Virus record (IMG/VR): IMGVR_UViG_3300028558_000001
Coordinates: 96,001-160,000 of that record
Direction: 5' to 3' (one strand)
DNA: 64,000 nt
DNA from: a virus
Below the pieces are notes generated by a model that saw only the letters and a list, made by a program, of their open reading frames with translations, was not told the DNA's origin and did not search any database. Position numbers and translations under genes: made by a program. Shown here one piece after another: positions 8,396 through 62,625 of this stretch; the stretch's first letter is position 1, and the number at the start of each line of letters is the position of its first letter.

Positions 8396-8860
8396 ATGGT
8401 GGTTGTTATGATTAATACTATGAGTAAAAATGCCTATATTGCCAAGGATGCACATGTTTTTGGCAATGCAAAAGTGTTTGGTACATCTGTTATGAAAGAT
8501 AGTGCCGTTATTTCTGGCAATGTGAAACTATATGATGCTTGTCAAATTTACGATACTGCTCATATTTCAGGAGATATGAGAGTGGCGGGAACTGCCAAGA
8601 TTTATGGAAACACAAAACTATTTGGAGTTGGTCATATTCAAGGGGAAGCAGATATTTCCTCGTCAAATGATTGGCTTACTATGGTTTATGCCGGGAAGGT
8701 AATAACCATCTACAAGTCCCGCTGTGATACTGGCTTTGAAGTTAACCTTGATGGAGTCAATACTAATCTTGTTGAACTTTCCGTCTTGGTTTCTGATAAG
8801 GTGGCGCGATACCTTAACCAACTGGTTAAGGAGCGGAAGTGGGTCACTAAAAAGAAATGA
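8396..8860 (+). CDS. hexapeptide-repeat (left-handed beta-helix) protein
   Basis: DAHVFG NAKVFG-type repeats. Confidence 0.7.
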   Translation: MVVVMINTMSKNAYIAKDAHVFGNAKVFGTSVMKDSAVISGNVKLYDACQIYDTAHISGDMRVAGTAKIYGNTKLFGVGHIQGEADISSSNDWLTMVYAGKVITIYKSRCDTGFEVNLDGVNTNLVELSVLVSDKVARYLNQLVKERKWVTKKK

Positions 8861-8866
8861 ACCAGT

Positions 8867-8894
8867 GAAGGGGATAGAATGAACTATCCCCTTC
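8867..8894 (+). terminator. stem-loop GAAGGGGATAG/CTATCCCCTTC
   Basis: 11-bp perfect inverted repeat between genes. Confidence 0.55.
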
Positions 8895-8911
8895 TAAAGT
8901 AAGGATATATA

Positions 8912-9982
8912 ATGGCGAAGAATAAAAAGAATGCATCTGATTTAGCAGTTATTAATAAAAAATATTTCGGCTCTGAGCCTGTTAGTTTTGATTACTCTTA
9001 TGATGCAATGATGGGCGCATATACCTTTTATAATTATATGTGTGACCTTTCTGATGCTAGAGAATACTTAGTTAAATATCTTCTTGATAATCATCGCAGG
9101 GATGAAGCTAAATCAATCAATAGTCTCAAGGAATGCTGGATTCCGACCACGGCGGCATGGATCGCCCGCGTTATCTCCAATGGTAATGACGTTCCAGATA
9201 CTTCAATTGATTTTATGAATCGTAAAATCAAAGAAGCACTTTCTCATAAAATCGAAGATGAAGATAATCCCAAACCATCTGTACAATCATTTATCTCTGA
9301 TAAGAGCAATGATGTAATTGCTAATATCGAAGATATTATTGATTCTGGATATGACTCCTCATTTTCATATTATAACTATTTCAAGACTCATGAATTATCT
9401 GCCAATATCCTACGAAAAGTCAAGGACTATTATCTTCCCCTCCTAAATGAATATGAGAGCATTTCCGTTGACAGGGATTTGAAGGAAGGCTATCGGTTCC
9501 TTACGAAGAAGGACATTGCGATTCGAGTCGATTATCTCAAGAAGATGTTTTCTGATATTGATACCATTATCAATAACAAGAAGCAGATGCGTAAAAAGCC
9601 AGTACGTACTAAGACAGTCAAGAGTAAGAAAATAAACTTACTTGACTTCCAGTACATGAAGGAAGACGTAGGTAACAAATTAGTATCAGTTGATCCTAGT
9701 AAACTCATTGACAAGCGCGAAGTTTGGTTATATAATACAAAGTATAATGCATTGTCTGTCCTTTATTCTGATGAAGGTTTCTCTATCAAGGGAACTACAA
9801 TTCATAATATTACTGACAAGTCCGTGAGTAAAAAAATCGGAGCTTCGAAAACAAAGGTGTTGACTCGGGTCATGACAGACACTAAGGTACAGCTAAGGAA
9901 GTTGATGGGCGACATTAAGAGTGCCGCTCAAGAGGCAACGGGGCGTACAAATGAAAACGTTTTGATATTAAGAGTGTTTTGA
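8912..9982 (+). CDS. conserved T4-like hypothetical protein
   Basis: 356 aa; C-terminal LVSVDPSKL...WLYNTKY...FSIKGTTI...TGRTNENVLILRV pattern. Confidence 0.7.
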   Translation: MAKNKKNASDLAVINKKYFGSEPVSFDYSYDAMMGAYTFYNYMCDLSDAREYLVKYLLDNHRRDEAKSINSLKECWIPTTAAWIARVISNGNDVPDTSIDFMNRKIKEALSHKIEDEDNPKPSVQSFISDKSNDVIANIEDIIDSGYDSSFSYYNYFKTHELSANILRKVKDYYLPLLNEYESISVDRDLKEGYRFLTKKDIAIRVDYLKKMFSDIDTIINNKKQMRKKPVRTKTVKSKKINLLDFQYMKEDVGNKLVSVDPSKLIDKREVWLYNTKYNALSVLYSDEGFSIKGTTIHNITDKSVSKKIGASKTKVLTRVMTDTKVQLRKLMGDIKSAAQEATGRTNENVLILRVF

Positions 9983-33667: not shown

Positions 33668-34348
33668 TTACTTAAATGTGACTAGTGGATACTGCTTTAG
33701 TTCTTCTCTCTTGTACCAAGGAACAGGATTGATTGCAGATGCAATAATCTTATTACCAATATCTGGTTCAACGAAATGATGAAATTCAAACTTATTATGA
33801 AATGTTTCTAAATCTTTAGCTGAAACCAAGGAAGGACGATGGACGACCTGAAAATAGATTTCGTGTGGATTAAGGTTAGCAGCCATGTTCTTCCCGGCTA
33901 CCATTGCAGCATGAGTTGCTTGAACCATTGCATATTCTGGTGAAACTGTTTCAGTATCGACAAAAATATAGCAATAGTGGCGGTCTAACTTGTTTACATC
34001 GTAGTTATAGAGAGCTATAACTAGCTCTCTATATTTTTCAAATTCTTCTGGTGTATCGAAGAAATCTTGTGCCGGAACACCAAAGATAACATGCTTTTCT
34101 CCGTCCTTCCAAGTAACATACTTATTAAGTATATATAAAGCATGTTCAAGAGCCTGATATGGCTTTGCACCGCTGTTTAACTTATTTGGATTACGGATTG
34201 GCGTAAATGCCTTTGATAAGAAGATTTTAGTTAGTTCAAACTTATCTTCTGTCTTAGCGGAGAGAGCCTTGACGATGCAGTAATTAACAACATCAATAGC
34301 AACCATGTTATTGTTTAGGGTCTTCCAGATTGTCTTATAGTTTTTCAT
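33668..34348 (-). CDS. peptidyl-tRNA hydrolase type 2-like protein with N-terminal extension
   Basis: C-terminal YIFV...PEYAMVQATHAA...FVEPDIGNKIIASA resembles the Pth2 Q..HA and D motifs. Confidence 0.6.
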   Translation of the reverse strand: MKNYKTIWKTLNNNMVAIDVVNYCIVKALSAKTEDKFELTKIFLSKAFTPIRNPNKLNSGAKPYQALEHALYILNKYVTWKDGEKHVIFGVPAQDFFDTPEEFEKYRELVIALYNYDVNKLDRHYCYIFVDTETVSPEYAMVQATHAAMVAGKNMAANLNPHEIYFQVVHRPSLVSAKDLETFHNKFEFHHFVEPDIGNKIIASAINPVPWYKREELKQYPLVTFK

Positions 34349-34402
34349 TTTAATTTTCCTTTTGATCGTTTTACATTGAGTTTATAAATTTATTCCACTT
34401 GA

Positions 34403-34456
34403 TCAGAAGGGAGGGCCGGTACTAAGCTAGAATAAGATAATTTCCTTATAATTCAT
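34403..34456 (-). promoter_or_regulatory. leader ORF MNYKEIILF-amber-LSTGPPF-opal with anti-SD segment
   Basis: AAAGGA SD, ATG 34456, TAG 34429-34427, TGA 34405-34403; CCTTCTGATC (34410-34401) pairs with GATCAAAAGG (34367-34358). Confidence 0.6.
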
Positions 34457-34461
34457 TTGCT

Positions 34462-34653
34462 TTATCCTTTCTTTACTTCGAAGGGTTTATAGGTTGTTTC
34501 GATAGTTTTTACTAACCTACCTGAACCATTACATGCTTTACATGGTTCAGTATGTGTTTCATAGTCATTCTTATGGTAATCAACAAGCTCATCCCATTGA
34601 ATGACTCCTTCACCAGAACATTTTACACATAGAATTAATTCTACTTTCTTCAT
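34462..34653 (-). CDS. small DnaJ-type zinc-finger protein
   Basis: CVKCSGEG...CKACNGSG. Confidence 0.7.
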   Translation of the reverse strand: MKKVELILCVKCSGEGVIQWDELVDYHKNDYETHTEPCKACNGSGRLVKTIETTYKPFEVKKG

Positions 34654-34874
34654 TACATCATCACCTATTATTTATAGTAAATGAAGGTTCTTTTACGGGT
34701 GAAACCTACAATATCCCTAAAGGTTCTTTCTGTAAGAAGGTGAATCCTATAATATCCTCGTTTAGTTCGGAACTTGACTAAATGCAACCTATGGTTAGGA
34801 TTTATCGAGTCTCTCAGCACTTTATTGTCATTCACAGGAAGTAACCATTTAATTTTCCTGTTAGTTCCGAATTC

Positions 34875-34950
34875 TGGCGGCGGCGAGGGGGATCGAACCC
34901 CTGACCAAGAATTTTAGAGATTCCTGCTCTACCATCTGAGCTACGCCGCC
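34875..34950 (-). tRNA. amber suppressor tRNA (anticodon CTA)
   Basis: GGCGGCG/CGCCGCC acceptor, GGAAT-CTCTAAA-ATTCT anticodon arm, TTCGATC T-loop, G73, CCA. Confidence 0.9.
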
Positions 34951-41466: not shown

Positions 41467-41543
41467 TGGCACATCATGTTGGATTCGCACCAACGTCTGC
41501 TTCCTGAGAGGGAAACTGTACTTGACTGCTATACGAATGATGT
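41467..41543 (-). tRNA. atypical tRNA-Glu(CTC)-like paralog (8-nt anticodon loop)
   Basis: GTTTC-CCTCTCAG-GAAGC; T-loop TGCGAAT; GCCA. Confidence 0.65.
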
Positions 41544-61269: not shown

Positions 61270-62625
61270 TCACATAAGATGCTGCACCATAACTCTACGA
61301 TAGTAGAGATTTGAGTCTTGTACTAGAGCGCCTGAACCAACGGTTAGACCCTGAGCGAATGGGTTGGCTACCATGCCGTAACGAGTCTTGAAACCAATCT
61401 TTGGCTGATAGGTGTTTGGATCAACTGCACGGACCATCTGTAGTGGAACGTATGGGCAGTAGAATAGACCAGCATCATACTGATTGCCGCCCTTTAGACC
61501 TAGGGTTAGATAGTTGCCAGTTGTATATGGATCAATATAGACCTTAATACGACCGTTTAGAAGACCAGCAAAAGTATTACCAGTATCATCAACGCCTAGC
61601 TTGATAGCTAGTTCTGGAGTATAATCTAGTAGTTCGGCCATGTTTAGAGCAGAAGCCACGTCTGATGAACAGATCATGATGTTGCCCTTACCACGTCTGG
61701 TTGTCTTAGCGATCTGGTTAGCTTCACGCTCGATCTGATAGACTAGACCCTTGAACTTTTCAACTGACCAACGACCATTTGAGTCAACGTCTAGATCGAA
61801 GAAACCAGCAGTTGTGGTATCGGTCTGAGCGCCGGGAACGGCTGTGATGTTAATTGTACGAACTAGTTCGCGGTTAATTTCAGCTAGAAGTTCGCCCTGA
61901 ATAATATTGGCTAGTTCTGTTTCAGCATCAAGACCGTGAATTGCCTTTAAGTCTTGTGCTAGTTCGATTGAATAAGAACCCTGTAGCCCGCGTGAACCGG
62001 CTGTTACAGTTGTCTTTTCAATGTCGAAAGCGACTTCTGGGAATACAGAGTTACCTGATCCTAGACCTTCGGCCTGTGCTGTTGAGATTGAACGACCATA
62101 GTTGTATAGTGCTGCACCAGAGTTGTTAGAAACTGATGGAGTAGTACCAACCTGACCACCACCTAGAACGGAAGTATTTGCAGTACCAACGTTTGCACCA
62201 GCAAATGAAGTGAAAGCAGTATTAACTTCGTTATAGAAGTTTTCTGGACCAGTCTGTGAAGCATAGCGTGAACGCATTGCGAAGATGATACCAGTTGGGC
62301 CAGTCATTGGCTGGACGCCAGCAATATCATAAGCAATTAGGTTAGGCATTGCTCTACGAACTAGAGAAATTAGAATTGGATCGAAGGTGTCGATAGCACC
62401 GGAACCGGCTGTTGATGAAGATGTACCCATTGAGTTGGTTGGTGCGCCTTCGAATAGTGTCTGGCGTGAACCAGCAGAAGAAGCGGAACCTAGCTCACGG
62501 ACCATGTTCTCAAGAACAGTAGCCGTTACGAACTTGCGGTGATTATCCTTAATCTCGGGCATTTCGTCGTGCTCTAGAATTGGATTCCACTTATTAAAAA
62601 GGTCTTCTTTTAGATACTGTTGCAT
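61270..62625 (-). CDS. 23: major capsid protein gp23
   Basis: LISLVRRAMPNLIAYDIAGVQPMTGPTG, DLKAIHGLDAE, GFKTRYG. Confidence 0.98.
   Translation of the reverse strand: MQQYLKEDLFNKWNPILEHDEMPEIKDNHRKFVTATVLENMVRELGSASSAGSRQTLFEGAPTNSMGTSSSTAGSGAIDTFDPILISLVRRAMPNLIAYDIAGVQPMTGPTGIIFAMRSRYASQTGPENFYNEVNTAFTSFAGANVGTANTSVLGGGQVGTTPSVSNNSGAALYNYGRSISTAQAEGLGSGNSVFPEVAFDIEKTTVTAGSRGLQGSYSIELAQDLKAIHGLDAETELANIIQGELLAEINRELVRTINITAVPGAQTDTTTAGFFDLDVDSNGRWSVEKFKGLVYQIEREANQIAKTTRRGKGNIMICSSDVASALNMAELLDYTPELAIKLGVDDTGNTFAGLLNGRIKVYIDPYTTGNYLTLGLKGGNQYDAGLFYCPYVPLQMVRAVDPNTYQPKIGFKTRYGMVANPFAQGLTVGSGALVQDSNLYYRRVMVQHLM

Follow-up and report, generated by a model that had tools for sequence, protein, structure and literature searches.

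The window analysed here, a 64,000-nucleotide (nt) stretch of viral DNA (positions 96,001 to 160,000 of IMG/VR record IMGVR_UViG_3300028558_000001), carries on its minus strand a transfer RNA (tRNA) gene of the amber suppressor type, a short leader open reading frame (ORF) broken in frame by an amber codon, and a gene whose product has the fold of Pth2, a peptidyl-tRNA hydrolase. The parts, their order and their co-variation are established from sequence, and together they support well a real, conserved regulatory module and a gate within it, whose mechanism we infer. Very probably, termination at the leader UAG leaves the Pth2-like gene off, and readthrough to a Pro-Pro pair or to the stop behind it turns the gene on. 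That the module is a readthrough-gated translational attenuator whose purpose is to induce a probable ribosome-rescue hydrolase is the reading we favor on balance.

All coordinates below are window positions, and the module lies on the minus strand throughout. The tRNA gene (34875..34950) is called by ARAGORN, which names tRNAs by anticodon only, as a 76-nt gene with a CUA anticodon, an encoded CCA and a G73 discriminator. It scores 66.9 bits against the Rfam tRNA model and aligns as an ordinary 76-nt tRNA, with the intact cloverleaf, CUA anticodon and CCA end of a nonsense suppressor. The leader ATG (34456) follows 419 nt after the tRNA 3′ end behind a Shine-Dalgarno (SD) sequence of its own, AAAGGA (34465..34470), so that a translatable leader with its own SD stands upstream of the regulated gene, as in translational attenuators. 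The leader ORF (34403..34456) reads nine codons, an in-frame TAG (34427..34429), L-S-T-G-P-P-F and a final TGA (34405-34403); its T-G-P-P pause motif occupies 34409..34420, with Pro-Pro at 34414-34409. An anti-SD arm (34401..34410) begins inside the second Pro codon and pairs at 9 of 10 positions with a 3′ arm (34358..34367) that takes in most of the SD (about 34361-34357) ahead of the Pth2-like gene (33668..34348). An earlier note, made from the letters of this DNA without database searches, had described the complete CUA tRNA, a leader with its own SD about 420 nt downstream and the 9/10 pairing of the leader end with the SD region of the next gene, and had read them as a candidate readthrough-sensing attenuator. 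ARAGORN and Rfam agree on the tRNA, every element of the leader lies where described, the helix appears in both the minimum free energy and the centroid structures of the window fold, and the interpretation as a whole is supported by the computational tests reported here.

The 226-aa Pth2-like protein has six close homologues (59-79%) and 216 distant ones. Neither tblastn with the query on cultured phages nor an IMG/VR scan with the single sequence gave a match, and a GTDB scan gave two, both on contigs of metagenome-assembled genomes that may be phage. We collected homologous loci from viral and metagenome contigs, using sub-alignments for pattern scans as the 132-row family alignment was too divergent, and obtained 59 distinct loci of the leader class, of which three are cut off upstream and 56 could be scored. 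In 55 of the 56, an in-frame stop lies 2-13 codons before a Pro-Pro pair that is itself 55-85 nt ahead of the start codon. Two loci (L028 and L029) entered the class because they had leaders, and the count without them is 53/54; at L007 the detector picks a wrong-frame Pro-Pro, and the locus was scored as TAG instead. On control genes the relaxed detector was positive for 26/1021 (6 of them TAG), and a stricter detector that requires SD-ATG for 6/1016. Conservation of the leader stop, Pro-Pro and anti-SD in homologues, which the earlier note had named beforehand as a point on which its reading would turn, is thus found in nearly every scored locus.

The stop of these 55 leaders is TAG in 51 and TGA in four, the latter with a UCA tRNA. 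All six close homologues have TAG followed by an in-frame T-G-P-P, differing in codons and in leader length, and SD-ATG precedes the leader in the five (5/5) whose contig extends that far; in five relatives the stop of the upstream gene replaces a separate leader start. The family motifs are RGPP (17), TGPP (9), RAPP (6), IGPP (4), RDPP (3), HGPP (3) and a few others, with RGPP, RAPP or RDPP in 26/55 leaders and R-[AG]-P-P in 23/55. The motif is kept through synonymous changes, with each of the four Pro and four Gly codons in use across loci, and its frame to the ATG and the stop is kept. The distances from Pro-Pro to the downstream ATG fall about equally often in each frame (17/20/18); the leader is therefore not an N-terminal part of the protein. 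Two loci differ in their upstream organization: L124 is the sole homologue with the N-terminal domain and full upstream DNA that lacks a leader, and its 10.7-kb locus has no suppressor tRNA; at L083 (9960-9990) the only upstream ATG is SD-less and one base out of the Pth2-like frame before the TAG, possibly a frameshift variant or an assembly error, with a CUA tRNA 225 nt upstream.

The leader stop also matches the anticodon of the neighboring tRNA. We counted tRNA linkage on 52 loci after collapsing duplicates and, since a permissive DNA pattern for CUA tRNAs returned much noise, confirmed candidates with ARAGORN. A TAG leader has a CUA tRNA within 3 kb upstream in 34/52 loci and a TGA leader has a UCA tRNA in 3/52, with no mismatches (nominal Fisher p = 1e-4, the relatives not being independent); for 12 of the remaining loci the contig is too short for a decision, and another three have CUA-type genes when thresholds are lowered. 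The co-occurrence with suppressor tRNAs that the earlier note had proposed to check is therefore present. A single clade for the three opal forms is rejected (approximately unbiased test, p = 0.01; one form is a long branch, and two are inseparable, p = 0.10), and stop and anticodon have therefore switched together at least twice, independently. This covariation is the indirect basis on which the CUA tRNA is taken to be aminoacylated and to decode UAG. A second identical stop occurs a few codons earlier in 14/52 leaders. Across loci the acceptor stem and discriminator of the suppressor tRNA bodies vary so widely as to suggest that the identity of the inserted amino acid is immaterial; in the present genome no pyl genes are evident among ORFs of at least 200 aa, with no profile search aimed at them.

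Across loci the hairpin begins with the second Pro codon or just past it and, at its other end, covers the SD; at the level of the family, an SD-sequestering helix thus has its 5′ arm where the paused ribosome would stand. The anti-SD arm forms at least 10 of 12 pairs with its own SD region in 77% of cases and with the SD region of another locus in 20%. The modelled median cost of opening the start region falls from 8.6 kcal/mol for a ribosome placed at the stop to 2.1 kcal/mol for one at Pro-Pro; the latter is lower by more than 1 kcal/mol in 45/55 loci, and the corresponding costs in the window are 4.5 and 0.6 kcal/mol. In a ribosome-position scan, which depends on an assumed +13 footprint, the drop in opening cost comes when the P site, counted from the first Pro, advances from codon −4 to codon −2; at 2 codons, the smallest spacing of stop and Pro-Pro among natural leaders, a terminating ribosome has its P site at −4. 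An Rfam scan found no family for the leader or the helix.

In the proposed mechanism, a ribosome would start on the leader and reach the UAG, where release factor 1 (RF1) and the charged CUA tRNA would compete. If RF1 wins, the ribosome would terminate short of the hairpin, and the Pth2-like gene would keep its SD paired. If the charged tRNA wins, the ribosome would go on to Pro-Pro, pause there or at the following stop, occupy the anti-SD arm and free the SD. As the outcome would be set by RF1 against charged CUA tRNA, the output would track the ratio of charged suppressor to release factor, and leaders with two stops would sharpen the threshold. The circuit would respond to high suppression or to low release factor; it would not sense a shortage of Pth, because such a shortage would sequester tRNA and lower readthrough. 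The family motif, R/T-G-P-P or RAPP, resembles known arrest motifs: RAPP and RGPP, which proteomes strongly avoid, have been shown experimentally to be arrest motifs upstream of regulated genes, and arrest refractory to elongation factor P (EF-P) is a property by which RAPP/RGPP arrest peptides are described (PMC12992588).

A second architecture was found in cultured phages whose Pth2-like proteins are distant homologues. These phages have no leader, and the amber lies at codons 2-4 of the Pth2-like gene itself (XacN1, Xoo-sp13, RAS14, BF, GAP32, Arash, ME3, RsoM2USA, Myrna, fHe-Yen9-03 and ScoobyDoobyDoo); we count ten amber-gated cultured phages, taking the two mycobacteriophages, with a GTG first codon of less certain use, as one case. 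All of them carry CUA tRNAs. In XacN1 the homologue is ORF364, whose annotated start is directly preceded by an in-frame SD-ATG-AAG-TAG. In RaK2, K64-1 and Hallingskeid the Pth2-like gene contains no amber and a canonical CUA tRNA is absent, and these are soft negatives for the suppressor because pseudo-tRNAs remain. From these comparisons, gating implies a suppressor in every checkable case, and the reverse does not hold.

In XacN1, Xoo-sp13 and RAS14 (L009 2530-3390, L010 and L011) an N-terminal domain bearing an HD-type motif is joined to the amber-gated Pth2-like domain, and the annotated starts fall downstream of the amber. Because of the early in-frame TAG, the gene is unannotated in GenBank for Serratia phage BF (L189), RsoM2USA (L194) and fHe-Yen9-03 (L283) and truncated for GAP32, Arash and ME3. 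In Myrna (L195) and ScoobyDoobyDoo (L284), GTG-TAG stands in frame ahead of the annotated GTG start of a peptidyl-tRNA hydrolase gene, just past a promoter-like site or SD, and a CUA tRNA, which the Myrna record lists as tRNA-Ser, lies after the gene. In Salmonella phage Arash, ARAGORN finds a CUA anticodon in a tRNA (L191 2801-2875) recorded as Phe. Two loci (L091, about 8560-9090, and L197) have Pth2-like genes with two in-frame TAGs, at codon 3 and mid-gene, which may be a double gate or local recoding. Erwinia phage Hallingskeid (L280 49276-49358) and RaK2 (L277 195541-195616) have tRNA-like elements with enlarged anticodon loops containing CTA, possibly decayed suppressors. The single-domain homologues of a freshwater clade (L033-L074) and of L270, L271 and L273 begin directly behind a sigma-70-like promoter and have neither leader nor amber; several of the genomes concerned have CUA tRNAs with unusual D arms, sometimes two.

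The product of the gated gene has an N-terminal all-helical domain (residues 1-120) and a C-terminal Pth2-fold domain (residues 121-223). Its structure is predicted with a predicted local distance difference test (pLDDT) score of 96.5, and for residues 121-223 Foldseek returns solved Pth2 structures (E = 6e-4); the same residues align with Pyrococcus horikoshii Pth2 at Z 12.9 (root-mean-square deviation 2.1, 103 aligned); the structure matches of the protein include phage proteins named peptidyl-tRNA hydrolase. The family profile matches solved Pth2 as well (E = 8e-4). Over the 132-row alignment Q143 and H146 are invariant, E194 and D196 are near-invariant, and the catalytic Asp position is kept in 125/132 homologues. 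Taking Lys, Asp and Thr to be the catalytic residues of archaeal Pth2, we find that the full set is not present, a comparison judged on sequence alignment only. Pfam and PHROGs scans of the query returned no family; 11/132 homologues match Pfam Pth2 (PF01981) weakly (best E = 6e-4), and the query does not reach its gathering score. The N-terminal domain has only generic helical structure matches (Z 5.5 or less) and is a separate upstream gene in some relatives. The earlier note had called the protein Pth2-like, and this holds for the fold of residues 121-223, but the catalytic Lys is replaced and the query has no Pfam match. At fold level, and in those residues only, the protein is like Pth2; because it is divergent and two-domain and its catalytic Lys is replaced, a shared chemistry, and with it the label peptidyl-tRNA hydrolase, is putative.

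The least certain step is what this protein does: most likely it recycles peptidyl-tRNA from ribosomes that fail to terminate, and such a rescue hydrolase would work alongside the phage transfer-messenger RNA (tmRNA) found beside many homologues. We favor a rescue hydrolase because a tmRNA lies within 5 kb in 22/52 loci, because phage PTH2 has been proposed to act in ribosome rescue (PMC7824862), and because the gene is kept in phages that have no suppressor. SsrA copes with readthrough caused by suppressors, to go by the title of Ueda 2002 (cited in PMC8012679). The tmRNA genes at homologous loci are called by ARAGORN in permuted form, and lie directly beside the block of tRNA, leader and Pth2-like gene in L015, L017, L018, L020, L028, L036, L068, L069, L073 and others.

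Several observations weigh against a readthrough gate that induces rescue. The helix is weak in the window alone (−7.6 kcal/mol; stability against shuffles, z 0.83 and 0.16), and since it is no more stable than shuffles the single-genome fold is no evidence for it; the excess over chance comes from conservation across loci. The six closest relatives have 83% helix pairing, yet their pair covariation is not above shuffles. The window motif, TGPP, lies outside the R-[AG]-P-P pattern of the RAPP/RGPP arrest peptides and is a weaker form of the family motif, presumably an EF-P-sensitive pause and not a hard arrest; because it is weaker, a ribosome terminating at the final UGA, on the same anti-SD arm, may lengthen the dwell there. 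Where Pth2 has its catalytic Lys, 76/132 homologues have Q and 45/132 have Y, and the loop that in Pth2 carries the catalytic Thr is shorter. Neither a tmRNA nor a release-factor gene was found when both were sought in this genome. Finally, the freshwater clade has an ungated Pth2-like gene behind a leaderless promoter and still carries CUA tRNAs, so gating is dispensable.

A further reading, which we put forward tentatively as possible, makes the suppressor tRNA mainly a sentinel, its competition with the host release factor at one stop measuring termination capacity during infection. Swappable stop/anticodon pairs and double stops would tune the threshold, the trigger might be, for example, a host defence or drug that removes RF1 or RF2, and the induced gene would encode a Pth2-fold enzyme of a new class, for rescue or release, whose active site is altered.

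Other explanations keep the gate and change its purpose. The Pth2-fold protein might act on the suppressor tRNA, for example by deacylation, or otherwise lower readthrough, giving a negative feedback that caps amber suppression in the manner of release factor 2 (RF2) autoregulation. The gene would then be turned on by the very activity it limits, it stands beside the suppressor tRNA in both architectures, and an active site that departs from canonical Pth2 would allow a changed substrate. We nevertheless judge such feedback unlikely: the protein seems useful without a suppressor, because RaK2, K64-1 and Hallingskeid retain the ungated gene without a canonical CUA tRNA (subject to the pseudo-tRNAs noted above), and the heterogeneous acceptor stems of the suppressors offer no common recognition element beyond the anticodon loop. 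Less likely again is a timer or self-check, in which the gene is translated only once the phage tRNA has been transcribed, matured, charged and left intact, which would hold back a protein with harmful effects early on or in a host that breaks down phage tRNAs. Recoded phages have been proposed to time late genes through suppressor tRNAs (10.1101/2021.08.26.457843), and the form with an amber at codons 2-4 needs nothing further. However, most leader loci seem to have tRNA and gene in a single block with a shared orientation, which would leave such a timer little delay; the double stops in 14/52 leaders fit threshold sensing better, and ungated versions exist.

We regard as improbable an account with no readthrough at all, in which expression is set by the ribosome that terminates, or simply by RNA structure, the Pro-Pro codons serve as anti-SD sequence only, and the tRNA is linked by neighborhood. 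CCU codons are indeed complementary to the SD, the second Pro codon belongs to the helix, and the window helix is weak. Such an account leaves unexplained the stop/anticodon switches and the reading frame kept through the stop, the preference for Arg or Gly before Pro-Pro at synonymously varying codons, the helices that start as far as 13 codons beyond the stop, and the in-frame amber form of the cultured phages.

The phage genome itself is a complete 176,660-bp record with direct terminal repeats, a GC content of 37% and 24 tRNA genes. Its major capsid gene (window 61270-62625, minus strand) is of T4 type, nearest to Stenotrophomonas phage DLP6 (65%) and Sinorhizobium phages phiM12/phiN3 (62%), and the sequencing runs that contain its DNA are rhizosphere metagenomes. 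The leader TAG is not an assembly error, since contigs from two runs, at 35x (the probable source run) and 2.5x, cover the site without differences. The earlier note's statement that the phage is not otherwise recoded stands: the code is standard, 8/189 genes end in TAG, and the gain in ORF coverage from TAG readthrough is no greater than that from TGA readthrough, in place of the many TAG-interrupted genes and the rise in coding density that mark genetic code 15. At the opal and amber loci, likewise, the stop codons function normally elsewhere on the contigs, with no TAG-specific coverage gain. A genome-wide search for other long ORFs behind SD-ATG and an early TAG gave no convincing second target, the candidates not being checked by homology, and a promoter and terminator scan gave chance-level signal only. 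That the module is a relic or early stage of TAG recoding, its ambers ordinary sense codons, is thus largely refuted and very improbable: suppressor tRNAs mark recoded phages and have been proposed to precede recoding (10.1101/2021.08.26.457843), but there is no TAG-specific coverage gain in this genome or at homologous loci, no other convincing amber-interrupted gene in the genome, and an amber confined to one conserved regulatory position.

Between the tRNA and the leader, a 63-aa zinc-finger-like ORF (CxxC...CxxCxGxG; 34462..34653, minus strand) supplies the leader SD, which doubles as its last two codons. It has a counterpart before the leader in L004, but most homologues have no similar ORF there, and it is therefore accessory. 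Elsewhere in the window, a tRNA-like gene that ARAGORN cannot assign (41467-41543, minus strand) adjoins tRNA-Glu(CUC); it has an irregular anticodon arm and a CCA end, and is possibly a pseudo-tRNA or decoy.

The proposed output stage is that of attenuation of the ermC/cat type, in which the position of a ribosome on a leader opens an SD-sequestering helix; in the phage module, however, the input would be stop-codon readthrough instead of an antibiotic or metabolite, and the sensor would include a trans-acting tRNA gene. The logic is also that of prfB, the gene for RF2, which is autoregulated by a +1 frameshift at an in-frame UGA. As in prfB, release factor and recoding would compete at an early stop and so set the expression of a translation-related gene, and the in-frame amber form of the cultured phages is logically the same; the phage gate differs in being cognate suppressor readthrough, mostly at UAG and against RF1, in being phage-borne, and in having as output a Pth2-fold protein and not a release factor. 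RAPP/RGPP attenuators (ApdA, ApdP, ApcA, SecM RAGP; Streptomyces peptides, PMC12992588) likewise use an upstream ORF ending in x-x-Pro-Pro to control a downstream gene. In contrast to them, access to the phage motif would be gated by an in-frame stop and a dedicated tRNA and not released by pulling force, the phage peptides are very short and have no signal or membrane segment, and the window has TGPP. The 226-aa protein shares with Pth2 (PF01981; P. horikoshii 1wn2, Archaeoglobus fulgidus 3erj) and phage PTH2 (PMC7824862) the fold, Q-x-x-H and the Asp of the second motif, and differs in its added N-terminal helical domain, the change of Lys to Q/Y, a shorter Thr loop and a score below the Pfam threshold. 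A literature search, with most subscription papers outside its scope, found no published description of an attenuator gated by readthrough through a dedicated tRNA.

If the mechanism is true, the module would be a natural attenuator that takes stop-codon readthrough by a dedicated tRNA as its input. In recoded phages (codes 15 and 4; Borges et al., 10.1101/2021.08.26.457843) a phage-encoded, host-charged suppressor tRNA has also been proposed as a regulatory switch, but the present genome is not recoded and one conserved leader stop is the only target found. Borges et al. treat the suppressor tRNAs of standard-code phages as precursors of recoding, and standard-code jumbo phages such as XacN1 likewise carry CUA tRNAs, whose target genes could not be identified in the XacN1 paper (PMC5852040). 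The module described here would give these unexplained suppressor tRNAs of standard-code phages a conserved target, in two architectures, and would offer a selective reason to gain a suppressor tRNA ahead of genome-wide recoding.
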